IMG/VR virus record: IMGVR_UViG_2778261313_000015
DNA: 32,940 nt
Strand: one strand, 5' to 3'
Source: a virus
Taxonomy: Duplodnaviria > Heunggongvirae > Uroviricota > Caudoviricetes
Made by a program: the position numbers and the translations under genes
The notes under the pieces: generated by a model
The model's input: the letters and a program-made list of their open reading frames with translations, nothing else
Database searches by the model: none
Told to the model about the DNA's origin: nothing
Part shown: piece after piece, positions 1-32,940 of the stretch
Layout: the number at the start of each line of letters is the position of its first letter
Position numbering within the stretch: the first letter of the stretch is position 1

Positions 1-981
1 TTATAACGTCACTCCGCCTTTTAGTGGATTCAGAGCGACGGCGTTCTGCAGGTAGTCAGGCGCAAGGTGCGCATAGGTCATTGTCTGCTGAATGCTCGCA
101 TGCCCCAGAATCTGTTGCAGTGCAATTATGTTGCCCCCATTCATCATGAAATGGCTTGCGAATGTATGCCGCAGAATGTGGGTTGCCTGATTGGGAGGTA
201 TATCAGGTTTCACTCTGCGTAAAATCCCGCAAAACTTCTCATAATCTACCTTGAACAATTTGGCGCTGGCCTCCTCTTTAACTTTTTTCTCCAGTTCCTC
301 AGAAATCGGCACTGTTCGCTTTTTACCGTTTTTGGTTTTCAGGAAGGTAACCCTGCAACTTGTAATCTGTGCTGGTTTTAGCGTGGCAACTTCCGTCCAT
401 CTTCCTCCAGTGCTCAGACATAAAAGCGCGACAAGTAAGTCATCACCAGTCAAAACATTTAGCAGTTTTTCGATTTCTGCTTTTTCCAGGAACGTCATTT
501 CAGGGTTAGCCTCCGTCAGTGGCGGCAGTCCGTGAATTGGGTGTTGCCCGGAAAATTCATCCAATTGAATTAATTTTGTGAACATGCCGGATAATCGGTA
601 CATGTCGCGGTTTATCGTTGCAGCACTGATGCCATCACGTAGTCGCATGGAGCGATAATCCATCAAAGCCCTTTTGTTCATCCGACTCACTGGTATATCA
701 CCTATGCCGCTGATGGTTTTGAGCAGATGATTAAACTCTTTTGTCCCATGCTCGTGGTTTTGCCCGTGGTATTTCCACCAGATGTCGAGCAATTCTGTCA
801 AAGTTCGGCGGTCTGCTCGCTGGCCTCCCCATTCTTTCTGACTGGCATTGACGATTGTGTATCGCTCAAATGCTACCGCTTCAGCTTTTCTTTCAAATTT
901 CCTGCGGATGCGTTTTCCATCGCGACCGCGAGGCCTGATATCCACTTCATAACGTCCATCATCGAGCTTTCTGATACTCAT
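1..981 (-). CDS. int: tyrosine integrase, P2 Int family
   Basis: Minus-strand ORF; N-terminus MSIRKLDDGRYEVDIRPRGRDGKRIRRKF resembles P2 Int as recalled; C-terminal HxxR...Y catalytic region (ILRHTFASHF...TMTYAHL); GGAGGG RBS before ATG at 981. The track ORF extends to 1191, but that extension would overlap C. Confidence 0.9.
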   Translation of the reverse strand: MSIRKLDDGRYEVDIRPRGRDGKRIRRKFERKAEAVAFERYTIVNASQKEWGGQRADRRTLTELLDIWWKYHGQNHEHGTKEFNHLLKTISGIGDIPVSRMNKRALMDYRSMRLRDGISAATINRDMYRLSGMFTKLIQLDEFSGQHPIHGLPPLTEANPEMTFLEKAEIEKLLNVLTGDDLLVALLCLSTGGRWTEVATLKPAQITSCRVTFLKTKNGKKRTVPISEELEKKVKEEASAKLFKVDYEKFCGILRRVKPDIPPNQATHILRHTFASHFMMNGGNIIALQQILGHASIQQTMTYAHLAPDYLQNAVALNPLKGGVTL

Positions 982-1093: not shown

Positions 1094-1387
1094 TTAGCCA
1101 GTTTTGCGGCCTGAGTGTGACGATGTTGTTTCTTCTGGCCCAGAGTGTGCGACGACCGGGGAAATCTGCCCGGATTCTGGCGCAATCTCATCTGTCATAA
1201 TCCATAATGTATATTTTTTAAACAGCGGTGTGTTGACTACTTGCTTTACGATTTGTAGTCCTGGCTCTTTATGTCCACCTTCATAATTTTTCAACGAACT
1301 AAGTGCTAATCCACTAAGCTCGCAAAATTTTTTTTGTGTTAATCCCTCGGCCTTGCGAATAGCGCGAAGTTTCTCCGATATTTTCAT
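1094..1387 (-). CDS. C: immunity repressor, P2 C family
   Basis: 97 aa; HTH near N-terminus; C-terminal ...YTLWIMTDEIAPESGQISP...HSGRKTG resembles P2 C as recalled. Confidence 0.85.
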   Translation of the reverse strand: MKISEKLRAIRKAEGLTQKKFCELSGLALSSLKNYEGGHKEPGLQIVKQVVNTPLFKKYTLWIMTDEIAPESGQISPVVAHSGPEETTSSHSGRKTG

Positions 1388-1534
1388 TTGACATGGTTCC
1401 CCTATGGAGACTATATTTCCCTCAAAAGGTACTTGTTCGGAAACCTTTTGGGGCGTGAGTCCAGCCAGTCAGGAACGCTCCTGAGCGGTTTTAAGAGGGC
1501 TGGATGGATAAGATTAGCACGAGAGGTGTGTTTT
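1388..1534. promoter_or_regulatory. divergent C/cox switch region (expected Pc/Pe promoters and operators of the lysis-lysogeny switch)
   Basis: Intergenic region between divergently oriented C and cox, as in P2; individual operator sites not resolved by eye. Confidence 0.5.
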
Positions 1535-1807
1535 ATGGACGCAAACAACTATGTGGTTAAGTATCCGATTGATGCGGTACACCCTGACAAGTTTGCAGAA
1601 TTGCTCGGAAAACCGCGTACTGCGGTCGTTGAAATGATCAAAGCTAACAAGTTGCCGGTAGTTGAATTTCGCGATCCAACTAAGCCGAATGCTCGTGCAG
1701 GAGACAAACTGGTTTTCATTCCTGAGTTCAATCGTGGTGTGCGTGAGGCATTCTACAACCGACCGATAGAACAGCGGGACGCGTGGTTGCTGTGGATGGG
1801 GCTTTAA
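1535..1807 (+). CDS. cox: Cox-like excisionase / early-operon repressor
   Basis: 90 aa from the internal ATG at 1535, preceded by GAGAGG; position and size match P2 Cox (91 aa). Confidence 0.7.
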   Translation: MDANNYVVKYPIDAVHPDKFAELLGKPRTAVVEMIKANKLPVVEFRDPTKPNARAGDKLVFIPEFNRGVREAFYNRPIEQRDAWLLWMGL

Positions 1808-1861: not shown

Positions 1862-2050
1862 ATGGCGAACAAAAATAGTACGAACCAGTGCGGCACAGAT
1901 AAGGCACTGACGCAGAGAGAAATTTTAGAACTGGCGGTAAAAATCGGGGATTTCATCAAAGAAGAGGCCGGACGCTTAGATAAACAGGTGTCCGGCAAAG
2001 ATATCAGCGTTATCGCTGGCGTACTGGACTTTATTCACCAGTGTGAGTAA
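1862..2050 (+). CDS. hypothetical small early protein (62 aa)
   Basis: ORF with AAGGGG RBS; occupies the P2 orf78 position. Confidence 0.45.
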   Translation: MANKNSTNQCGTDKALTQREILELAVKIGDFIKEEAGRLDKQVSGKDISVIAGVLDFIHQCE

Positions 2051-2053
2051 TGC

Positions 2054-2230
2054 CTATTTTTTCGCGAGTTTTTCTTCGAGTTTTTTCTCAAGAACTGGAT
2101 AGATAGCATCAAATAAGCGTGAAGCTCGGGTTTCTACAGGAACAGGCATTACTGATTGTTCAGTAAGTGCTCCACCAATGACTGAACAGGTCTGCTCAAA
2201 AAGAAACTTGGTTTTTTCTAAATCATTCAT
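2054..2230 (-). CDS. hypothetical small protein (58 aa), antisense to the early operon
   Basis: Minus-strand ORF from MNDLEK with AAGGA RBS; AT-rich; no sense-strand ORF across 2051-2347. Confidence 0.35.
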   Translation of the reverse strand: MNDLEKTKFLFEQTCSVIGGALTEQSVMPVPVETRASRLFDAIYPVLEKKLEEKLAKK

Positions 2231-2347
2231 GTCGTTATTCCTTGTGTTACGAACTACTTGCTTACATTTGGAGTGAAAGCAATTGGATAGTACCACAAGA
2301 CCATGCGCCGGACATGGCTAAAAACCGGCTCTGTTTCAGGAGGAGTT

Positions 2348-2518
2348 ATGCAGGAACCTCGTTGTATTGCTCAGTTATTGCGTAACGAAAGCCCCAGGGC
2401 GATTGACTTCACCATCACCCACGGGAAGGGACGCAAGGGAATCATTATCCGCACCAAAAAACAGAGTCCGTTAAAAAAGGCTCTGACCTTTCTGAAAAGC
2501 CGGAGGGTATGGAAATGA
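2348..2518 (+). CDS. hypothetical small basic protein (56 aa)
   Basis: AGGAGG RBS 5 nt before ATG at 2348; ends overlapping the B start. Confidence 0.5.
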   Translation: MQEPRCIAQLLRNESPRAIDFTITHGKGRKGIIIRTKKQSPLKKALTFLKSRRVWK

Positions 2519-3015
2519 CAGTGATGACGCTCAATCTCGTCGAAAAACAGCCAGCAGCTATGCGCCGGATAATTGGTAAGCATCTTGCCGTCCCTCGCTG
2601 GCAGGATACATGTGATTATTATAATCAGATGATGGAGCGCGAACGGCTAACGGTTTGCTTCCATGCGCAGTTAAAACAGCGTCACGCAACGATGCGTTTT
2701 GAAGAAATGAACGACGTCGAACGTGAACGACTGGTATGTGCAATTGATGAATTGCGTGGGGCATTCTCAAAACGCCGTCAGGTTGGCGCAAGTGAATATG
2801 CATATATTAGTTTTTTAACAGTCAGTCAGCGTCGCACTTTATTTATGCACGCACGACTGACAGAAAAAGAATTTAACCAGCCATATTGGCGAATTAATGA
2901 AGAATCATGTTACTGGCGTGATGCTTTATTCCGTGCATTACGTGAATTATTCAGTCTGTTTGAGTATGCACCGACAATTCTGACGTCGGTAAAACCAGAG
3001 CAATATCTGCATTAA
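2509..3015 (+). CDS. B: replication protein B (helicase-loading function in P2)
   Basis: 168 aa; size and position match P2 B (166 aa); sequence MTVMTLNLVEKQPAAMRRIIGKHLAVPRWQ... resembles P2 B as recalled. Confidence 0.85.
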   Translation: MEMTVMTLNLVEKQPAAMRRIIGKHLAVPRWQDTCDYYNQMMERERLTVCFHAQLKQRHATMRFEEMNDVERERLVCAIDELRGAFSKRRQVGASEYAYISFLTVSQRRTLFMHARLTEKEFNQPYWRINEESCYWRDALFRALRELFSLFEYAPTILTSVKPEQYLH

Positions 3016-3829: not shown

Positions 3830-4101
3830 GTATTCGTATCGAAATTGGCGAACGTTATGTTGTTACCAGTGACAGCTTTCAGTTTATTCTCCACGAGAAA
3901 AAGAGAGCGGAAAGCGGTAAAAACGCCGGTCAGGAATGGCTGGCGGTGGTTGGTTATTACCCGAAATTAAGCCAGCTCGTTTCCGGCCTGATGCATCACG
4001 ATATTCTGACCGGAAGCGCAAAATCTTTTGCCGATTTAAACGTGCAGGTTGAGCAACTCAGCAGGCGTTGTTCAGAGGCTTTTGGCTCATATGGCCGTTA
4101 A
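3826..4101 (+). CDS. hypothetical protein, P2 orf83 position
   Basis: 91-aa ORF overlapping the start of A. Confidence 0.6.
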   Translation: MSIRIEIGERYVVTSDSFQFILHEKKRAESGKNAGQEWLAVVGYYPKLSQLVSGLMHHDILTGSAKSFADLNVQVEQLSRRCSEAFGSYGR

Positions 4102-6385
4102 AGCCTCCGGGCGTTTTGTCCCTCCGTCAGCATTTGCCGCAGGCACCGGTAAGGCGTTTACCGGTGCTTATGCATGGAACGCGCCACGCGAGGCTGTCGG
4201 GCGCGAAAGACCCCTTACACGTGACGAGATGCGTCAGGTGCAAGGTGTTTTATCCACGATTAACCGCCTGCCTTACTTTTTGCGCTCGCTGTTTACTTCA
4301 CGCTATGACTACATCCGGCGCAATAAAAGCCCGGTGCACGGGTTTTATTTTCTCACATCCACTTTTCAGCGTCGTTTATGGCCGCGCATTGAGCGTGTGA
4401 ATCAGCGCCATGAAATGAACACCGACGCGTCGTTGCTGTTTCTGGCAGAGCGTGACCATTATGCGCGCCTGCCGGGAATGAATGACAAGGAGCTGAAAAA
4501 GTTTGCCGCCCGTATCTCATCGCAGCTTTTCATGATGTATGAGGAACTCTGCGATGCCTGGGTGGATGCGCATGGCGAAAAAGAATCGCTGTTTACGGAT
4601 GAGGCGCAGGCGCATCTGTATGGTCATGTTGCTGGCGCTGCACGTGCTTTCAATATTTCCCCGCTTTACTGGAAAAAATACCGTAAAGGACAGATGACCA
4701 CGAGGCAGGCATATTCTGCCATTGCTCGTCTGTTTAACGATGAGTGGTGGACTCATCAGCTTAAAGGCCAGCGTATGCGCTGGCATGAGGCGTTACTGAT
4801 TGCTGTCGGGGAGGTCAATAAAGACCGTTCTCCTTATGCCAGTAAACATGCCATTCGTGATGTGCGTGCACGCCGCCAGGCAAATCTGGAATTTCTTAAA
4901 TCGTGTGACCTCGAAAACAGGGAAACCGGCGAGCGCATCGACCTTATCAGTAAGGTGATGGGCAGTATTTCTAATCCTGAAATTCGCCGGATGGAGCTGA
5001 TGAACACCATCGCCGGTATTGAGCGTTACGCCGCCGCAGAGGGTGATGTGGGGATGTTTATCACGCTGACCACGCCGTCAAAGTATCACCCGACACGTCA
5101 GGTCGGAAAAGGCGAAAGTAAAACCGTCCAGCTTAATCACGGCTGGAATGATGAGGCATTTAATCCAAAGGATGCGCAGCGTTATCTCTGCCGTATCTGG
5201 AGCCTGATGCGCACGGCATTCAAGGATAATGATTTACAGGTCTACGGTTTGCGAGTCGTCGAGCCACACCACGACGGAACGCCGCACTGGCATATGATGC
5301 TTTTTTGTAATCCACGCCAGCGTAACCAGATTATTGAAATCATGCGTCGCTATGCGCTCAAAGAGGATGGCGACGAAAGAGGAGCCGCGCGAAACCGTTT
5401 TCAGGCAAAACACCTTAACCGGGGCGGTGCTGCGGGGTATATCGCGAAATACATCTCAAAAAACATCGATGGCTATGCACTGGATGGTCAGCTCGATAAC
5501 GATACCGGCAGACCGCTGAAAGACACTGCTGCGGCTGTTACCGCATGGGCGTCAACGTGGCGCATCCCACAATTTAAAACGGTTGGTCTGCCGACAATGG
5601 GGGCTTACCGTGAACTACGCAAATTGCCTCGCGGCGTCAGCATTGCTGATGAGTTTGACGAGCGCGTCGAGGCTGCACGCGCCGCCGCAGACAGTGGTGA
5701 TTTTGCGTTGTATATCAGCGCGCAGGGTGGGGCAAATGTCCCGCGCGATTGTCAGACTGTCAGGGTCGCCCGTAGTCCGTCGGATGAAGTTAACGAGTAC
5801 GAGGAAGAAGTCGAGAGAGTGGTCGGCATTTACGCGCCGCATCTCGGCGCGCGTCATATTCATATCACCAGAACGACGGACTGGCGCATTGTGCCGAAAG
5901 TTCCGGTCGTTGAGCCTTTGACTTTAAAAAGCGGCATCGCCGCGCCTCGGAGTCCTGTCAATAACTGTGGAAAGCCTGCCAGCAGTGATGCTTCGTTACC
6001 GGCTCCCACACCTTCTGAACACGCCGCAGCAGTGCTTAATCTGGTAGATGACGGTGTTATCGAATGGAATGACCCGGAGGTTGTGAGGGCGCTCAGGGGC
6101 GCACTAAAATACGACCTGAGAACGCCAAACCGTCAGCAAAGAAACGGAAGCCCGTTAAAACCACATGAAATTGCACCATCGGCCAGACTGACCCGGTCGG
6201 AAAGAATGCAAATCACCCGTATCCGCGTTGACCTTGCTCAGAACGGTATCAGGCCGCAGCGATGGGAGCTTGAGGCGCTGGCGCGTGGGGCAACCGTAAA
6301 TTATGACGGGAAACATTTCACTTATCAGGTCGCTGATGAGTGGCTTGGATTTCCTTCTGTTGATTTTTTTGATTGTGGTGCTTGA
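4091..6385 (+). CDS. A: rolling-circle replication initiator A (HUH endonuclease)
   Basis: 764 aa from MAVKASGRF; P2 A is 761 aa; contains a HWHMML-type HUH motif and the YIAKYISK active-site tyrosine motif. Confidence 0.9.
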   Translation: MAVKASGRFVPPSAFAAGTGKAFTGAYAWNAPREAVGRERPLTRDEMRQVQGVLSTINRLPYFLRSLFTSRYDYIRRNKSPVHGFYFLTSTFQRRLWPRIERVNQRHEMNTDASLLFLAERDHYARLPGMNDKELKKFAARISSQLFMMYEELCDAWVDAHGEKESLFTDEAQAHLYGHVAGAARAFNISPLYWKKYRKGQMTTRQAYSAIARLFNDEWWTHQLKGQRMRWHEALLIAVGEVNKDRSPYASKHAIRDVRARRQANLEFLKSCDLENRETGERIDLISKVMGSISNPEIRRMELMNTIAGIERYAAAEGDVGMFITLTTPSKYHPTRQVGKGESKTVQLNHGWNDEAFNPKDAQRYLCRIWSLMRTAFKDNDLQVYGLRVVEPHHDGTPHWHMMLFCNPRQRNQIIEIMRRYALKEDGDERGAARNRFQAKHLNRGGAAGYIAKYISKNIDGYALDGQLDNDTGRPLKDTAAAVTAWASTWRIPQFKTVGLPTMGAYRELRKLPRGVSIADEFDERVEAARAAADSGDFALYISAQGGANVPRDCQTVRVARSPSDEVNEYEEEVERVVGIYAPHLGARHIHITRTTDWRIVPKVPVVEPLTLKSGIAAPRSPVNNCGKPASSDASLPAPTPSEHAAAVLNLVDDGVIEWNDPEVVRALRGALKYDLRTPNRQQRNGSPLKPHEIAPSARLTRSERMQITRIRVDLAQNGIRPQRWELEALARGATVNYDGKHFTYQVADEWLGFPSVDFFDCGA

Positions 6386-6581: not shown

Positions 6582-7757
6582 ATGAAAAAAAACTCGGTAG
6601 GTGTGGAGGATAAATTAAAACATAAAGCAGTTCAATATATTAATATTGAAGATCTGGAGCTTGATGTTGAAAACCCCCGCTTTGGTGAAGACTCTTCTTC
6701 ATCTGATACACAAGTTGATGTGCTAAATAATATTGTTAAAAATTATGGCGTTACTGATGTAATAAGTTCTATTGCAGTGAATGGTTATTTTTCTGCTGAG
6801 CCAATGGTGGTGAGGAAAAATAATAATAAGAAATTCACTGTAATGGAAGGTAATAGAAGGCTGGCTGCCTGTCTTATACTTAAAAATGATGACAGAGCAA
6901 GAGATCAAGTTAATCTGCATCAACAGTATATTGATAAATACAATTCTCATGGGTGCCCTAAAATAGACCCAGTTCCAGCAATAGTTTTTGAAGACGATGA
7001 TGGTGTAGATAAAAAATCACTTATATCATATTTAGGTGTGAGGCATATCGTATCTACAAAGGATTGGGATTCATACGCTAAGGCTGCATGGATATCTCGA
7101 ACCATCAAGGAAGGAGATATGAGCGTATCTGATATTTCCACTATGATTGGTGACCGTAATAGCACTATAAAAAGACTTTTGTCTGGATATAATTTCATTA
7201 AACAAATGGAGTCTGCTGGGAAGTATAATAAAGATGATAGTGTGAAGAAAGGGAGAGGGAGCAATACTAGTTATCCATTCTCGTGGGTTTATACATTGCT
7301 GAGTTATAAGAGTATTCAGGATTTTGTGGGCTTATCAGATAATCCTACAGACCCTAATCCAATAGATGAAAAGAAATTGGATAATGCGAAGCTTCTAATG
7401 ACAGCTATGTTTGGTAATAAAAATAAAGGACAAAACTCACAAGTTAAAGACTCTCGTAATCTTGGTGTCTTGGCTGAGATAGTTGCTTCTCCAGAAAAAG
7501 TTATACTGCTCAAGCAAGGCAAGGATGTTGAAGACATTAATGACCTAACTCAGCCAATCGGCGATAGGTTGACTAGTTTAATGTTAGAAATTAGAAGTAA
7601 ATTGGACGAATGTCTTACGAGGGTAGGGCGTGAAGATTTACCAATGCAGGATGCTATTCAACTTAATATATATCTTGAGCAAATAAGTAAACAATTTAGA
7701 TCTTTTAGAGTATCAATTAATGAGGCTATTACTGGAAGTGATAGTGAGGGTTTTTAA
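6582..7757 (+). CDS. ParB/Srx-like N-terminal domain protein (391 aa), candidate defence/cargo gene
   Basis: Motif PMVVRKNNNKKFTVMEGNRRLAACL matches the ParB GxRRxxA-type signature; strongly AT-rich; sits at the P2 tin/old hotspot. Confidence 0.6.
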   Translation: MKKNSVGVEDKLKHKAVQYINIEDLELDVENPRFGEDSSSSDTQVDVLNNIVKNYGVTDVISSIAVNGYFSAEPMVVRKNNNKKFTVMEGNRRLAACLILKNDDRARDQVNLHQQYIDKYNSHGCPKIDPVPAIVFEDDDGVDKKSLISYLGVRHIVSTKDWDSYAKAAWISRTIKEGDMSVSDISTMIGDRNSTIKRLLSGYNFIKQMESAGKYNKDDSVKKGRGSNTSYPFSWVYTLLSYKSIQDFVGLSDNPTDPNPIDEKKLDNAKLLMTAMFGNKNKGQNSQVKDSRNLGVLAEIVASPEKVILLKQGKDVEDINDLTQPIGDRLTSLMLEIRSKLDECLTRVGREDLPMQDAIQLNIYLEQISKQFRSFRVSINEAITGSDSEGF

Positions 7758-7759
7758 TT

Positions 7760-8716
7760 GTGAATTATGGTTTACGCTCTAAAATGCAGGGATTCGCAAC
7801 AGATGCGGATCAAGCAGAATTTAATGCATTACTTGATGTTAGCGCGACAATAGACTCAGGAATTGAGGATGATAAAATTGCTGGAACTATCTATGATGAG
7901 TTAGAAAATTTAGATGGTCATTTGGAAGAAGAATGGATGATGGAAGATCAGGGAAAGGAGCTTTTAGTTGGTCAGATAGCCGAGCATATACAATGGAGAG
8001 CAAAGGTTTTGGATGATATGTATCCATTTGAATATAAAGAAAATCATCTAACATTAAAGGAGTCTCCTTCCCTTGTTTATCTGTTTTGCTTATGTGTCTC
8101 TGTAATTAATAATTTAACAAAAGGAGATAATGTTAAGTTGCCTAGATTTTTTGAAGTTATGGCTGGGCGATTATTCACAAAATTTTTTAGTTCACACGCA
8201 AAACACATGCATACTGGTTGGCCTCGTTCAAATGGAAATCCTAGTAGTTATAAGGAACTAGCTTATAAATTGAACTCTTCGATCTCACCAAATACAAGAG
8301 AATGGTCTTGGCGCGTAGAGAATGGCTTAAGAGATGAGGATGCATTGAGAATTAAAGATTGTGGTGTGGATTTTGTTACATGGGTTGATTTTTTGGATGG
8401 TAGAGATGGACGTTTATTTGCTTTAGGGCAATGCGCTTGTGGTAATGATTGGCCAACAAAGTTTCAGGATATTAAAATTGAAAGGTTAACACCATGGTTT
8501 CATCCATTAACTTACATTAAGTGTGTTAAAGTTTTCTCAACACCTTATGTGTTAGTTGATGAAATGATAAGAGAAGCAAGCGCAGAAGCTGGAATTATAT
8601 TTGATCGAGTCCGTTTAACTATTGCATATGAGCGTTTTAAGGATGAATTTGGTGATATGCAGGATGAGTTAGATGCGTTAATTACCTTTTGTAAAGAATT
8701 AAAAAAGGCCCAGTGA
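7760..8716 (+). CDS. hypothetical protein (318 aa), operon partner of the ParB-like protein
   Basis: GTG start 2 nt after the upstream stop, with GAGGG RBS (translational coupling); AT-rich; no motif I can assign. Confidence 0.55.
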   Translation: MNYGLRSKMQGFATDADQAEFNALLDVSATIDSGIEDDKIAGTIYDELENLDGHLEEEWMMEDQGKELLVGQIAEHIQWRAKVLDDMYPFEYKENHLTLKESPSLVYLFCLCVSVINNLTKGDNVKLPRFFEVMAGRLFTKFFSSHAKHMHTGWPRSNGNPSSYKELAYKLNSSISPNTREWSWRVENGLRDEDALRIKDCGVDFVTWVDFLDGRDGRLFALGQCACGNDWPTKFQDIKIERLTPWFHPLTYIKCVKVFSTPYVLVDEMIREASAEAGIIFDRVRLTIAYERFKDEFGDMQDELDALITFCKELKKAQ

Positions 8717-8730
8717 TGGGCCATTACCAT
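8701..8730. terminator. bidirectional stem-loop between convergent genes (GGCCCA-gtga-TGGGCC flanked by an A6 run)
   Basis: Hairpin overlaps the stop codons of the 318-aa gene and the methyltransferase; a U-run follows it for the minus-strand transcript. Confidence 0.5.
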
Positions 8731-9707
8731 ATATCAGGGATGTTTCTCACAACCGCTTCAAACAAAGGTGGTGGAACTGCATTACCTACGACCTTATATC
8801 TCTCTTTTAACATCCGTGCGGCCCCAAAACTATCCATGTCAGGAAAAGTTAGATAACCACCATGATTGGTATATTCTTTACTAAACCCTTGCAGAATCGC
8901 CGCTTCTTTATAGGAGAAGCGTCTGGCTGGCGAGTTTGTTATAAACTCCCACTTGTCCATACCCACTTTTTTTAATTCGGGGCTGATGGGATGCAAGGGA
9001 ATATGACGAAGATTACTTACGATAGTTTTACTAACTTCGTCCCAGTTGCGGCGTCTATTCCTAGATAAATAGTACCAGTGAAATGGGTCATCACAAAACT
9101 CACCGATTGGCCATTCAGGTAATCCCTTTAGTGCTTCACCGATTGTTACATAAGGTAATGATTTTTCCTCACCATGTGTGGCTTCAGGGAATTTATATTC
9201 TAGGTCGAAGTCGTTACGAATACCTACAATTATTAATCTCTTACGCTCTTGCGGTACACCGTAGTGGTGAGCTTTGAGTATATTCCAAACAACTTTATAG
9301 CCTATATTACCAGCATTGGAGAAGCGTTTTATTTGATCATCGAGTAGATGCTTAAATGTACTATTTCTCATACCTGAAACATTTTCGACAATAAATGCTT
9401 TAGGTTGAATATTGGTTAATGCACGTGCAAACTCTTTATATAAAAAATTTATACTCCTGTCCGCAAGACGTGCGCCACCTTGGCTAAATCCTTGGCATGG
9501 ATAGCATCCAACAAGAAGGTCTGCACTCGGAAATTTTTCAACTTCTCGGATATCTTGGATTAGGTAATCTGTTTCTGGTAGGTTTGCGAGATAAACCTTT
9601 CTCGCATATGGCAAAATATCGTTTGCCATAACGATGTCGAAACCAGCTTTGCTTAATCCAGCATCGGAACCACCACAACCCGAGAACAATGATACAGCTT
9701 TTGGCAT
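8724..9707 (-). CDS. DNA (cytosine-5)-methyltransferase
   Basis: Motifs FSGCGG (I), PCQGFS (IV), ENV (VI), QERKR (VIII), GNAV (X); GGGGGAG RBS before ATG at 9707; 327 aa. Confidence 0.85.
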   Translation of the reverse strand: MPKAVSLFSGCGGSDAGLSKAGFDIVMANDILPYARKVYLANLPETDYLIQDIREVEKFPSADLLVGCYPCQGFSQGGARLADRSINFLYKEFARALTNIQPKAFIVENVSGMRNSTFKHLLDDQIKRFSNAGNIGYKVVWNILKAHHYGVPQERKRLIIVGIRNDFDLEYKFPEATHGEEKSLPYVTIGEALKGLPEWPIGEFCDDPFHWYYLSRNRRRNWDEVSKTIVSNLRHIPLHPISPELKKVGMDKWEFITNSPARRFSYKEAAILQGFSKEYTNHGGYLTFPDMDSFGAARMLKERYKVVGNAVPPPLFEAVVRNIPDIW

Positions 9708-9914
9708 TTTCTCCCCCTGATAAACCGGCAAGAGTATAGCTTTTTATATGGCTACTGCATACATCATCCTTATAAATGGCAGTTTCTGGTGTATGCATGG
9801 ACGTGAATTTTTTTGCATGCATTAGCTTTACTTATTTGAAGTATTGTCCGTGACGTCTGGCGCGCTTCCAACGTATTCATGAAACTGCATTAAAAGCGCC
9901 CCATGAAGCGGGCG

Positions 9915-23129: not shown

Positions 23130-23722
23130 TGAAACCTGTTTTTGATGAAAATGGGCTGGCTACAGTGCCGGGTGATATGCGTTGTTTTTATTATGATGCA
23201 GTAACGTATGAATATACGGGCTGGTCTGATGAATATATTAATACTGGTGTAAGTATGCCCGCCTGTTCCACTGGTATTGACCCGGGCGAAAACATTCCGG
23301 GAAAAGTGGCAGTATTTACGGGTAAGGGATGGAGCCATGAAGAAGACCATCGCAATGAGACTGTTTACTCAACAGAAAATGGTGCAGCTGTTACAGTGGA
23401 TTATATCGGTGCCATCAAAGACGGTTATGTCACGCTTTCACCGTTAACGCCATATGATAAATGGGATGGTGAGAAATGGGTGACCGATACTGAGGCACAG
23501 CATAGCGCCGCAGTAGACGCGGCAGAAGCACAGCGTCAGTCACTGATTGATGCTGCAATGGCTTCCATCAGTCTGATTCAGCTGAAATTGCAGGCCGCAC
23601 GTAAACTGACGCAGGCAGAAACAACCAGACTTAACGCCGTGCTGGATTACATTGACGCGGTGACGGCAACAGATACCAGCACCGCGCCGGATGTCATCTG
23701 GCCTGAACTGCCGGAGGCGTAG
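23129..23722 (+). CDS. G: tail fibre assembly chaperone G
   Basis: 197 aa; C-terminal Tfa signature ...DYIDAVTATDTSTAPDVIWPELPEA. Confidence 0.8.
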   Translation: MKPVFDENGLATVPGDMRCFYYDAVTYEYTGWSDEYINTGVSMPACSTGIDPGENIPGKVAVFTGKGWSHEEDHRNETVYSTENGAAVTVDYIGAIKDGYVTLSPLTPYDKWDGEKWVTDTEAQHSAAVDAAEAQRQSLIDAAMASISLIQLKLQAARKLTQAETTRLNAVLDYIDAVTATDTSTAPDVIWPELPEA

Positions 23723-24113
23723 GCCATTCAATATCTGGAGCACTGGAGGTATCAACCAGTTCCAGTGCGTCCAGATAATCCAGCCACAAATTATATTGCG
23801 CCAGTTCCTCACCTTTCAGACGACCAATAGCCGCTTTACCAGGCCATTGCCTGCTGTTCATGTGCTCGTTGGCTTCATTAATAAGTTTTCCTTTTTTCAA
23901 CTCTGCCAATGCAATAAGGTTTTCTTTTGATAAAGGTGGTTGCTCTGTCAAAACCGGATATCCCTCCTGATTGCTGACTATTTTCATGCCATTATCCTGA
24001 CCATCCAGTAGTGACAGCCATTCATCCGTGGTTATCTCAACAGCATCTGAAGGTGCTTTATTTAAATCGGTAAAAAAACCATTTTCTTTTTGTGAATAGA
24101 AGTATCTGTCCAT
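23694..24113 (-). CDS. alternative tail fibre assembly chaperone (inverted copy, G')
   Basis: 139 aa; C-terminus ...DYLDALELVDTSSAPDIEWPTPPA parallels G; convergent with G and overlapping it. Confidence 0.75.
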   Translation of the reverse strand: MDRYFYSQKENGFFTDLNKAPSDAVEITTDEWLSLLDGQDNGMKIVSNQEGYPVLTEQPPLSKENLIALAELKKGKLINEANEHMNSRQWPGKAAIGRLKGEELAQYNLWLDYLDALELVDTSSAPDIEWPTPPAVQAR

Positions 24114-24116
24114 TTA

Positions 24117-24477
24117 TCAATCTCCAAAAGCAATCCAGTAAGCAAAAGGATTTATTCCTTGCTCAGTCACAGATGACATCAGGGAAAATTGCGATGATGA
24201 AACAGGTAATGCTGCAAAACTAACCATTGTTGACACACCTGACCGTGCATTATCGTACGATGCAACAACACAATAATTGGTATTGCTGAAAGATATCGGC
24301 AGGGTGATATTTACAGGTGAGCCTAATGGCCCTGATGCTGATATTCCCATTTGAATGATGGTTCCATCAGGCAATTTTCTCCAGCGATTAGAACTCGGAT
24401 TTCTTTTCCAGGCTGACATATCCGGTATCTGATTTTCTCCTGTACCCACATCCCTTTTCGCCGCTTCTCCCAAACCA
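24117..24477 (-). CDS. alternative tail-fibre C-terminal cassette (Hv'); has no independent 5' end in this orientation and would be fused to H after inversion
   Basis: Minus-strand reading frame continues through the right crossover site; ...GLGEAAKRDVGTGENQ... parallels the H junction ...GLGEGSALPVGVP... Confidence 0.65.
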
Positions 24478-24490
24478 ACGTTTATGAAAA
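24464..24490. repeat. right crossover site of the invertible segment (gix/hix-like)
   Basis: CTTCTCCCAAACCAACGTTTATGAAAA; inverted copy of the site inside H; about 55 bp upstream of the invertase gene. Confidence 0.65.
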
Positions 24491-24545
24491 TGCAGAGATA
24501 ACGGGCAAGTGGCATCATCTCCGGTTTTTATTCAGGGGGATGCTC

Positions 24546-25139
24546 ATGCTTATTGGCTATGTACGCGTGTCAACAAATGACCAGAACACGGAATTGCAGC
24601 GTAACGCGCTGGAGTGCGCAGGATGCGAGCGGATTTTTGAGGATAAAATCAGCGGCACGAAGTCCGACAGACCGGGACTGAAAAAACTGCTCAGAACATT
24701 ATCAGCAGGTGACACTCTGGTAGTCTGGAAGCTGGACAGGCTGGGGCGTAGTATGCGGCATCTGGTCATTCTGGTTGAGGAACTGCGCGAACGCGGCGTT
24801 AATTTTCGCAGTCTGACGGATGCTATTGATACCAGCACGCCGATGGGGCGTTTTTTCTTTCATGTGATGGGTGCCCTGGCTGAAATGGAGCGAGAACTCA
24901 TTGTCGAGCGGACACGCGCCGGACTGGAAGCGGCCAGAGCTAAAGGTCGTATTGGTGGCAGACGTCCGAAGCTCACCGCGAGTGAGTGGGAACAGGCAGG
25001 ACGGTTGCTGGCTGCGGGTGAATCACGTCAACGCGTGGCGCTGATTTTTGATATTGGCCTGTCCACGCTCTATAAAAAATTCCCCTCATCAGCGACAAAG
25101 AATAAATTGTGTCATCACTTAGCCAACCGGGACAAATAG
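24546..25139 (+). CDS. serine recombinase, DNA invertase (Hin/Gin/Cin/Pin family)
   Basis: N-terminal catalytic motif MLIGYVRVSTNDQ (serine nucleophile); resolvase-type catalytic domain; C-terminal HTH; AGGGGGA RBS. Confidence 0.9.
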   Translation: MLIGYVRVSTNDQNTELQRNALECAGCERIFEDKISGTKSDRPGLKKLLRTLSAGDTLVVWKLDRLGRSMRHLVILVEELRERGVNFRSLTDAIDTSTPMGRFFFHVMGALAEMERELIVERTRAGLEAARAKGRIGGRRPKLTASEWEQAGRLLAAGESRQRVALIFDIGLSTLYKKFPSSATKNKLCHHLANRDK

Positions 25140-31957: not shown

Positions 31958-32037
31958 TCCTCAATTTGCCTGCTGCTTAATGCATTGCAGATGATTTGCT
32001 TCCGTTATACTAGCGTCAGTTGATAGCGGGAGTATTT

Positions 32038-32940
32038 ATGAATCAATCTTATGGACGGCTGGTCAGTCGGGCGGCGATTGCTGCGACGGCGATGGCTTCG
32101 TTGCTATTGCTGATTAAAATTTTTGCATGGTGGTATACCGGGTCGGTGAGTATTCTCGCCGCGCTGGTGGATTCGCTGGTGGATATCGGCGCGTCGTTGA
32201 CGAATTTACTGGTGGTGCGATATTCCCTGCAACCTGCCGACGATAATCACTCGTTTGGTCACGGTAAAGCAGAGTCCCTCGCGGCGCTGGCGCAAAGTAT
32301 GTTTATCTCCGGTTCGGCACTATTCCTGTTTTTGACGGGTATTCAACATCTGATATCTCCAACACCGATGACAGATCCAGGCGTCGGGGTTATCGTGACA
32401 ATTGTGGCGCTAATTTGTACGATTATCCTTGTCTCGTTTCAGCGTTGGGTGGTGCGGCGGACGCAAAGCCAGGCGGTGCGGGCTGATATGCTACATTACC
32501 AGTCTGATGTTATGATGAACGGCGCAATTCTGCTGGCGCTGGGGTTGTCCTGGTACGGCTGGCATCGCGCCGATGCTCTGTTTGCATTGGGAATCGGCAT
32601 CTATATTTTATATAGCGCGTTACGCATGGGATATGAGGCGGTACAGTCATTACTGGATCGCGCATTGCCTGATGAGGAACGGCAAGAAATTATTGATATC
32701 GTGACTTCCTGGCCGGGTGTTAGCGGCGCTCACGATCTTCGCACGCGGCAGTCAGGGCCGACCCGCTTTATTCAGATTCATTTGGAAATGGAAGACTCTC
32801 TGCCTTTGGTTCAGGCACATATGGTGGCGGATCAGGTAGAGCAGGCTATTTTACGGCGTTTTCCGGGATCGGATGTAATTATCCATCAGGACCCCTGTTC
32901 CGTCGTACCCAGGGAGGGTAAACGGTCTATGCTTTCATAA
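32038..32940 (+). CDS. fieF: cation-diffusion-facilitator ferrous-iron/zinc efflux pump FieF (YiiP), host gene
   Basis: 300 aa starting [47 protein letters not shown]...; matches E. coli FieF as recalled. Confidence 0.9.

Follow-up and report, generated by a model that had tools for sequence, protein, structure and literature searches.

A two-gene insertion between cox and orf78

The DNA analysed here (32,940 nucleotides; IMG/VR virus record IMGVR_UViG_2778261313_000015; the whole stretch is referred to as the window) is a P2-like (Peduovirus) prophage, in whose early operon cox and a homologue of orf78 are separated by 540 bp (1808-2347) harbouring two small convergent genes. The first, ORF62, is read rightward, i.e., in the direction of the operon, and encodes a protein of 62 amino acids (aa); the second, ORF58, is read leftward and encodes a protein of 58 aa. 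Their stop codons are 3 nt apart (2051-2053). Both open reading frames (ORFs) and their spacing had been pointed out in a first-pass annotation, made by a model from the letters of the window alone, and were confirmed in the sequence. The same annotation had located the pair where P2 has orf78, and this placement was not borne out, as the orf78 homologue is present and intact immediately after the pair, preceded by an AGGAGG site at 2338-2343, and ORF58 and ORF62 belong to different PHROGs. In L-413C, a P2-type phage, the 540-bp segment is absent and the end of cox is 2 nt from orf78. Since orf78 is intact in the window and the two genes are 2 nt apart in L-413C, the ORF pair represents an insertion and not a substitute of orf78. 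When the window was compared by megablast with phage genomes, P2, L-413C and about 70 relatives matched it from base 2346 onward with 96-97% DNA identity, and the features annotated in P2-like phages over the matching stretch are orf78 and B. Moreover, of the 31 species-representative loci that possess an orf78 homologue, most have cox and orf78 directly adjacent to each other. The segment 1808-2347 is an optional cassette inserted between these two genes.

Because ORFs as short as these arise by chance, the case for their coding capacity rests on conservation. The ratio of non-synonymous to synonymous substitution rates (dN/dS) is 0.07-0.26 for ORF58 across six diverged loci and 0.17-0.31 for ORF62 across five, with the caveat that dS is often saturated in the distant pairs; furthermore, both ORFs are annotated in RefSeq as hypothetical proteins. 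ORF62 and ORF58 are both protein-coding and under purifying selection. The ATG of ORF62 is preceded by AAGGGG, and the ribosome-binding site that had been ascribed to ORF58 in the first reading is indeed there (Table 1); a AACACAAGG block is kept upstream of the ORF58-type ATG in related loci. An 80-aa form of ORF58 starting from a GTG was rejected, since both the homologues and the PHROG profile begin at the ATG at 2230. No conserved plus-strand ORF spanning 2051-2347 was found, in agreement with the absence of a sense ORF already remarked upon, and about 300 nt of the early transcript (2051-2347) are untranslated. An upstream start of orf78, at the in-frame ATG at 2303, was discarded, since that frame is not kept in the related locus L023. 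The interval had also been supposed to be a non-coding regulatory region, a supposition that conservation as non-coding DNA in the relatives would have strengthened. The comparison with the relatives revealed that the cassette is an insertion in which both ORFs are conserved as coding sequences; the idea fails for the two ORFs, which are under purifying selection, although conserved non-coding elements are located in the 117-nt spacer between ORF58 and orf78 (2231-2347).

As regards base composition, ORF58 had been described as distinctly AT-rich. Its GC content (37.9%) is in fact lower than that of the window (51.9%), 7.4% of the 177-nt windows being as low or lower, but the values of cox, ORF62 and orf78 (46-49%) and those of the other early genes (43-46%) make the distinctness only moderate. 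The base composition of ORF58 differs from that of its neighbours, but modestly.

The AF2 model of ORF58 is a helical hairpin (helices 3-24 and 32-57, pLDDT 86), and that of ORF62 has a disordered N-terminus followed by helices 18-39 and 45-60 (pLDDT 74). Inspection of the sequences and of the models revealed no hydrophobic segment of transmembrane length in either protein, and both are charged. The two proteins are predicted to be small soluble helical hairpins; being of this kind and devoid of an enzymatic domain, they would most likely act by binding another macromolecule. Neither ORF58 and ORF62, nor any of the 18 members of the ORF58 family, nor the proteins of the alternative cassettes described below matched a family in Pfam, NCBIfam or PADLOC, and in PHROGs only unnamed families were recovered for the cassette proteins. 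In PADLOC 2.0, no match at E<=1 was obtained for ORF62, ORF58 or orf78. Foldseek searches (the ORF58 model versus PDB and BFVD, the ORF62 model versus PDB) returned chance-level helical matches only (E > 1), and a profile search of the PDB sequences returned nothing. The suggestion that the cassette might encode a toxin-like peptide finds no correspondence in these data, given the predicted soluble helical hairpins, the lack of a hydrophobic or transmembrane segment and the lack of matches to toxin-antitoxin or defence families. At the RNA level, the search of Rfam 15 over 1300-2700 yielded one chance-level match to an S15 leader (E 4.9; 13 bits versus a gathering score of 39.5). In the literature, no paper was found for the RefSeq accessions or the PHROG numbers of the cassette proteins; the neaT paper deals with another P2 moron site.

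Promoter-like, terminator-like and inverted-repeat elements

The sequences upstream of the leftward gene were aligned for 10 loci, and five alignment positions (T58, G59, T61, A62 and T66) turned out to be invariant, forming the motif TGnTAnnnT. In 19 of 20 non-redundant loci, including those in which the leftward gene is unrelated to ORF58, the ATG is preceded by this motif at a distance of 38-68 nt, and the flanking sequence diverges; the exception is L062, which has TGGTATTTA instead. On this basis, ORF58 is predicted to have its own extended -10 sigma-70 promoter, with a transcription start near 2280.

A second conserved element resembles an intrinsic terminator of the ORF58 transcript. 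It consists of a hairpin located about 58 nt past the stop codon of ORF58 and within codons 33-45 of ORF62: the arms of its stem correspond to codons A36-G37-R38 and V43-S44-G45, and the T tract complements codons K33-E34-E35. The fold of the leftward RNA has an energy of -12.9 kcal/mol (z = -2.95). The pairs of the hairpin are kept at the homologous codons in eight of the nine ORF62-family loci, seven of which also have a T-rich tract after it, and double-sided changes were observed at three pairs (G-C to A-U, A-U to U-A, and C-G to A-U or G-C). A canonical hairpin followed by a T tract also lies directly after the leftward gene, inside the rightward one, in the unrelated cassettes of L005, L013 and L023. 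A conserved terminator-like element, as judged from its sequence and predicted fold, is therefore present between ORF58 and cox.

Two inverted repeats, IR-A and IR-B, lie upstream of the -10 element. They overlap and are mutually exclusive, occupying -49 to -19, at 10-30 nt before the ribosome-binding site of orf78, and each of them is unique in the window. The stems were tabulated by script across 20 loci, and the repeats were found at a fixed position relative to the -10 element in 17 (IR-A) and 19 (IR-B) of them, with the 3' arms ending at about -26 and -19, respectively. The sequences of the arms vary among the loci yet stay complementary, and the block containing the repeats is the best-conserved non-coding one, being 87-90% identical versus 43-77% for its flanks. 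In the window, the fold energies of the repeats are no better than those of shuffled sequences (z = -0.3 to -0.7), so that it is their position and covariation that speak for them; across loci, the fold energies gave no strand assignment.

The covariation points to a structure formed by the nucleic acid itself more than to a fixed operator bound by a protein, and since the same module serves unrelated genes, the proteins of the cassette are unlikely to use it as their operator. Comparison by eye with the LexA, CRP, sigma-54, MerR-type and P2 cox-box patterns revealed no match, and a role as rightward terminator was rejected, as in most loci no U tract follows the repeats. Possible roles include an insulating terminator for antisense read-through, a 5' hairpin protecting the orf78-B mRNA after cleavage of a sense/antisense duplex, and a recombination linker for the exchange of cassettes.

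Distribution of the ORF58 family and alternative contents of the slot

The 540-bp insert is present at full length and with at least 99% identity in 43 of 5426 complete Escherichia coli genomes, and a few more genomes carry diverged copies, which brings the number of E. coli genomes with the pair to about 48. As orf78-B was found at 1906 places in 1669 of the same 5426 genomes, the pair occupies about 2.5% of the E. coli P2-like early regions. Among isolated phages, the pair is harboured by two only, the Yersinia phages vB_YpM_115 and vB_YpM_117, from which it can be concluded that the pair is compatible with a viable phage and with lytic growth.

Word-seeded searches of 5.8 billion proteins recovered nine ORF58 clusters and three to four ORF62 clusters, and when 1.84 billion representatives were searched exhaustively with the ORF58 profile, 19 matches reached E<=0.001, four of which are long proteins that look like low-complexity chance matches. 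The 12 newly retrieved members of the ORF58 family are 56-72 aa long and share the motif M..EEK.LFLFxQTC, followed by a variable loop and by FDxxYxxLExKLxEKL; overall, the family comprises about 15 representative clusters with invariant motifs. The genomic context was examined in Enterobacter, in other hosts and in IMG/VR contigs. Every member examined belongs to a P2-like prophage with integrase, helix-turn-helix (HTH) repressor, Cox and GPA replication protein, and in every case the gene is antisense to the early operon and converges on a small gene, the distance between the two stop codons ranging from -18 (overlap) to +21 nt. Of 17 non-redundant lineages, 14 have a partner of the ORF62 family and one more is borderline, membership having been called by profile (E 1e-34 to 7e-3) in a database of 1582 ORFs; the ORF62 family is recognised by the motif LTPxEI..A..I..VKxEA..GKxISGxDI..I. 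In two lineages, the partner is unrelated to ORF62 (132 aa in L013 and 103 aa in L060). A pair of the ORF62/ORF58 type is also found upstream of cox, at 3582-4626 of L048, a distant P2-like prophage that also encodes a homologue of the 186 Fil protein. This location indicates that it is the beginning of the early operon, rather than the cox|orf78 junction itself, to which the module is linked.

The same slot can also house other genes (Table 1). In all the occupied cox|orf78 slots seen, a rightward gene converges on a small leftward one, and the leftward gene is never alone. No relation between ORF58 and the alternative leftward family of L005, L016 and L023 emerged from profile-profile comparison; the ORF62 profile gave chance-level scores with the alternative rightward genes, and BLASTP of the 198-aa and 68-aa proteins of L005 against ORF62 and ORF58 gave nothing. 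What these unrelated cassettes have in common, nearly base for base, is a 60-bp segment adjoining orf78 and including the promoter-like motif. The rightward genes are in part connected with one another: the 132-aa partner of L013 is related to the approximately 80-aa rightward gene of L023 and L028, its N-terminus is related to the 198-aa protein of L005, and the 198-aa, 132-aa and 80-aa proteins share a weak common region. Since the 132-aa family pairs with unrelated leftward genes, leftward and rightward genes assort independently. Identity profiles also revealed recombination breakpoints inside both genes (between the window and L003, for instance, ORF58 is 88% and ORF62 51% identical), the best-kept segments being the promoter block and the core of ORF62, which includes the predicted terminator. 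In L004 (E. coli 2012C-4227, 1251-2479), an IS2 element lies between an alternative leftward gene and the orf78 junction; cox is frameshifted and the A gene is truncated there, so this prophage is decaying.

Table 1. Features of the cassette and of its surroundings in the window, and alternative cassettes of related loci (coordinates of the latter refer to the locus named)
Feature	Locus	Position	Strand	Remarks
Integrase gene	Window	1-981	-	Stop codon coincides exactly with window start
C-type repressor gene	Window	1094-1387	-	HTH_3; PHROG 147
Pe-like early promoter	Window	1388-1417	+	TTGACA-18-TATATT; promoter scan, 11/12 positions match
cox	Window	1535-1807	+	Left boundary of insertion slot; Pfam Phage_Cox E 1e-22; PHROG 272 E 2.5e-44
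ORF62 (cassette R gene), 62 aa	Window	1862-2050	+	ATG start; PHROG 12968 full length, E 1.4e-47
Intrinsic-terminator-like element for ORF58 transcript	Window	1996-1958	-	Stem GCCGGAC/GTCCGGC (1996-1990 / 1973-1967); T tract CTCTTCTTT (1966-1958)
ORF58 (cassette L gene), 58 aa	Window	2054-2230	-	ATG start; PHROG 14615 full length, E 8e-45
Shine-Dalgarno sequence of ORF58	Window	2243-2238	-	AAGGAA, 7 nt before ATG at 2230; read from sequence
Extended -10 promoter of ORF58 (predicted)	Window	2295-2287	-	TG 2295-2294; hexamer TACTAT 2292-2287
IR-B	Window	2301-2317		CCATG-N7-CATGG; arms 2301-2305 / 2313-2317
IR-A	Window	2307-2329		GCCGG-N13-CCGGC; arms 2307-2311 / 2325-2329
orf78 homologue	Window	2348-2518	+	Right boundary of slot; PHROG 273 E 1.5e-40
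B	Window	2509-3015	+	Early operon; then four small ORFs
A replication endonuclease	Window	4049-6385	+	Early operon
Alternative cassette	L005, E. coli 90-3040	1653-2458	+/-	+198 aa / -68 aa
Alternative cassette	L016, E. albertii	2264-2900	+/-	+154 aa / -64 aa
Alternative cassette	L020, Scandinavium	2461-2899	+/-	+66 aa / -91 aa
Alternative cassette	L023 and L028; Huaxiibacter, Enterobacter	2473-2951 (L023)	+/-	About +80 aa / -64 aa

Interpretation of the convergent pair

It is known that prophages may contain morons, i.e., autonomous units made up of a promoter, a gene and a terminator, a concept that came from the comparison of HK97 and HK022. The explanation that appears on the whole probable is that ORF58 is a moron-type gene, expressed in the lysogen and nested in antisense orientation in the early operon, with ORF62 as a neighbouring accessory gene of that operon. 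A moron had been among the guesses of the first-pass annotation, and the leftward gene fits it: it is absent in L-413C, it has a promoter-like extended -10 element, a ribosome-binding site and a terminator-like hairpin, and it is more AT-rich. The unit would consist of the extended -10 promoter, a leader of about 50 nt, the Shine-Dalgarno sequence, the 58-aa coding sequence and the terminator within the codons of ORF62. If the terminator works, the leftward RNA would be about 320 nt long and would overlap the last approximately 90 nt of ORF62. Transcription of ORF58 would thus oppose the early operon, repressed by C, and would stop before cox; a unit antisense to a repressed operon and terminating at that point should, as other morons are, be expressed during lysogeny, and its transcripts would not feed C or int.

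ORF62, for its part, would be made upon infection or induction from the Pe-like promoter, which sits between the C repressor gene and cox and which we take to be Pe by analogy with P2; by the same analogy, this promoter would drive cox, ORF62, orf78, B and onwards. Strong transcription from it would shut off ORF58 through promoter occlusion, polymerase collision and sense/antisense pairing. Two convergent and overlapping units might therefore be expressed reciprocally, ORF58 during lysogeny and ORF62 during lytic growth.

The likeness to known morons, including old, tin and fun(Z), the lysogenic-conversion genes of P2, concerns several traits: an additional gene, missing from the same junction of close relatives, promoter- and terminator-like signals of its own, a lower GC content, an orientation opposite to that of the flanking lytic operon and, to judge from the arrangement of the ORF58 unit, expected expression from the repressed prophage. 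The P2 moron sites named in the literature are A|Q (old, tin) and G|FI (Z/fun) (PMC3573123, PMC9122126). Unlike these, the ORF58 unit sits within the early operon, at cox|orf78, which makes a third site; it also departs from morons in having its predicted terminator inside the reading frame of the neighbouring gene, a convergent early-operon partner nearly always, and a protein of just 58 aa. The predicted terminator in an opposing reading frame, the promoter module common to unrelated cassettes and the constant association of a rightward with a leftward gene are unusual.

Some observations weigh against the moron-type explanation. A generic sigma-70 scan did not call the ORF58 promoter, and a simple scan missed the terminator; the former can be traced back to the fact that the scan requires a match to the -35 (extended -10 promoters can work without a good -35), and the latter to the 16-nt loop of the hairpin. 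In the window, the T tract CTCTTCTTT is only moderately U-rich. Moreover, the same hairpin can form in the plus-strand RNA (1955-2003), with an 11-bp stem, an energy of -19.8 kcal/mol (z = -5.6) and no U tract after it. As the plus-strand fold is more stable, the hairpin could serve the early transcript instead of, or besides, the termination of ORF58; on the early RNA it might act, for example, in processing or in ribosome pausing. Lastly, the covarying repeats at -49 to -19 fall outside a moron model, and the rightward gene that stands beside the leftward one in every occupied slot is not required by a simple one.

This last regularity is what lends appeal to an alternative that is possible, even though rather unlikely, according to which the two genes form an antagonistic pair. 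ORF58 would be an effector of the lysogen (an exclusion, abortive-infection or host-modulating factor), and ORF62 a lytic antidote or replacement, made first from Pe, that keeps the prophage's own lytic cycle unblocked; this would amount to a prophage defence with cognate self-immunity. In 14-15 of 17 lineages, the two families are found together as a convergent pair, at identities as low as about 35-45%, the leftward gene is never found alone in the slots, the convergent layout implies reciprocal expression, and both proteins are small, helical and of a binding type. The pairing is nevertheless loosened by partner swapping: the ORF58 family is also associated with the unrelated 132-aa (L013) and 103-aa (L060) genes, and the 132-aa family is in turn paired with an unrelated leftward gene in L023 and L028. 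The recombination breakpoints within both genes and the absence of a PADLOC, toxin or antitoxin match speak against it as well, and since the predicted terminator of ORF58 lies inside ORF62, the co-inheritance of the two genes could be purely physical. A logic of this kind, in which a function of the lysogen is combined with a lytic-phase element sparing the prophage's own replication, is possibly shared with BstA/aba (PMC8585504). BstA, however, is a large protein and aba a DNA element, neither of which resembles the cassette in sequence or architecture, and the coupling between ORF58 and ORF62 is deduced from their arrangement and weakened by partner swapping.

A broader version of this idea, which we regard as speculative and unlikely, is that a hot-swappable slot exists at the cox|orf78 junction or, in a wider sense, within the first kilobase of the early operon, and that it is always occupied by a convergent two-gene toggle. 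The lysogen protein would be expressed from the shared extended -10/inverted-repeat module, the reading frame of the lytic partner would carry the terminator of the other gene, the products would be antagonistic (effector and antidote, or stabiliser and releaser of the switch), and the covarying alternative hairpins would control the hand-over. A slot in which conserved genes flank alternative and unrelated contents recalls the variable hotspots in which P2-like phages and P4 satellites carry accessory or defence genes (Rousset et al. 2022, PMC9122126; NAR 2026, PMC13586616). Unlike those hotspots, the cox|orf78 cassettes measure only 0.5-0.8 kb, invariably combine a small rightward gene with a small leftward one, share the leftward promoter/inverted-repeat module and did not match any known defence system.

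A third alternative, quite improbable in our opinion, would see in the cassette a device for the regulation of the lysis-lysogeny decision, with leftward transcription or antisense RNA damping the leaky read-through from Pe into orf78, B and A; in another form, ORF58 would stabilise lysogeny via Cox or C, and the inverted repeats would be part of the control. The position of the module is suggestive in this respect, as it always lies in the first kilobase or so of the early operon, beside the switch (upstream of cox in L048), and its predicted leftward promoter points towards Pe, which is about 860 bp away; in addition, the best-conserved non-coding block contains covarying alternative hairpins before the ribosome-binding site of orf78, and the stretch of early transcript downstream of ORF62 is untranslated. 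Purifying selection on both proteins would be needless for a device working purely at the RNA or transcription level, though, and about 97% of the E. coli P2-like early regions, as well as P2 itself, work without the cassette. Furthermore, leftward and rightward genes are swapped for unrelated ones, and the promoter module stays.

A known system comparable to such a device is the cII/pE system of phage 186, where, as predicted for the cassette, a leftward promoter is located a few hundred bp downstream of the early promoter and faces it, after cox/apl. The resemblance does not extend to a CII-like activator, since ORF62 is a predicted two-helix protein without a match to an HTH or CII family, and the ORF58 transcript, unlike that of pE, encodes a conserved protein of its own. 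Given its extended -10 element, the ORF58 promoter may need no activator, in this too differing from pE. A pE-like establishment promoter was rejected, because the conserved terminator-like element precedes cox and leftward transcription would not reach C and int, which would not be fed as they are by pE; the same point counts against a regulatory device in general.

A type I-like toxin-antitoxin locus or a small toxic peptide, with convergent overlapping transcripts of the txpA/ratA type, has very little probability. Although the units converge, their predicted 3' ends overlap, the genes are small and the location is a prophage, the proteins are charged, soluble helical hairpins without a hydrophobic or transmembrane segment, there are conserved proteins on both strands rather than one protein and one antisense RNA, and no toxin-antitoxin family was found in Pfam, NCBIfam or PADLOC. 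A type II system, i.e., a co-directional operon with toxin-antitoxin domains, was discarded on the grounds that the genes converge and that no such domains were found in the same three databases. That the ORFs are accidents of chance or annotation in a non-coding regulatory spacer replacing orf78 is hardly credible, since, common as ORFs of about 60 codons are and for all that no curated family names either of them, dN/dS is well below 1 (with dS saturated), the PHROG matches are full-length, RefSeq annotates both, about 15 representative clusters share invariant motifs and orf78 is in its place.

To return to the moron-type gene, the size of ORF58, its predicted hairpin fold and the predicted overlap of the transcripts recall Rop/Rom of ColE1, a 63-aa helical-hairpin dimer acting on sense/antisense RNA pairs; Rop was not recovered for ORF58 either by Foldseek against PDB or by the profile search of PDB sequences. 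Whatever the activity of its products, the cassette points to a third small accessory slot of P2-like phages, beside the lysis-lysogeny switch. The uncharacterised protein family housed there is narrow, with members of 56-72 aa, and is confined to P2-like prophages. Should the leftward genes act in lysogenic conversion or exclusion, they would join the very small effectors of prophages that escape domain-based searches; an antagonistic toggle, if that is what the pair forms, would represent a simple natural case of state-specific expression enforced by convergent transcription.

Genes were also identified in other regions of the window. The A|Q hotspot (6582-9822) contains three genes that may be defence or methylase cargo: the first encodes a 391-aa protein whose N-terminus matches the PD-Lambda-5_A models (PADLOC E 3e-19), the second (7760-8716) a 318-aa protein without a family match, and the third (8724-9731) a leftward C5 cytosine DNA methylase (Pfam PF00145 E 2e-59; DruM-like). 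In the G|FI region (23694-25139), a serine invertase (Resolvase and HTH_7; 24540-25139) adjoins leftward genes for tail-fibre assembly and for a tail-fibre C-terminus, an arrangement that looks like an invertible host-range segment. At the right end of the window, the flank of the prophage is a host cation-efflux gene (Cation_efflux and ZT_dimer; 32020-32940).

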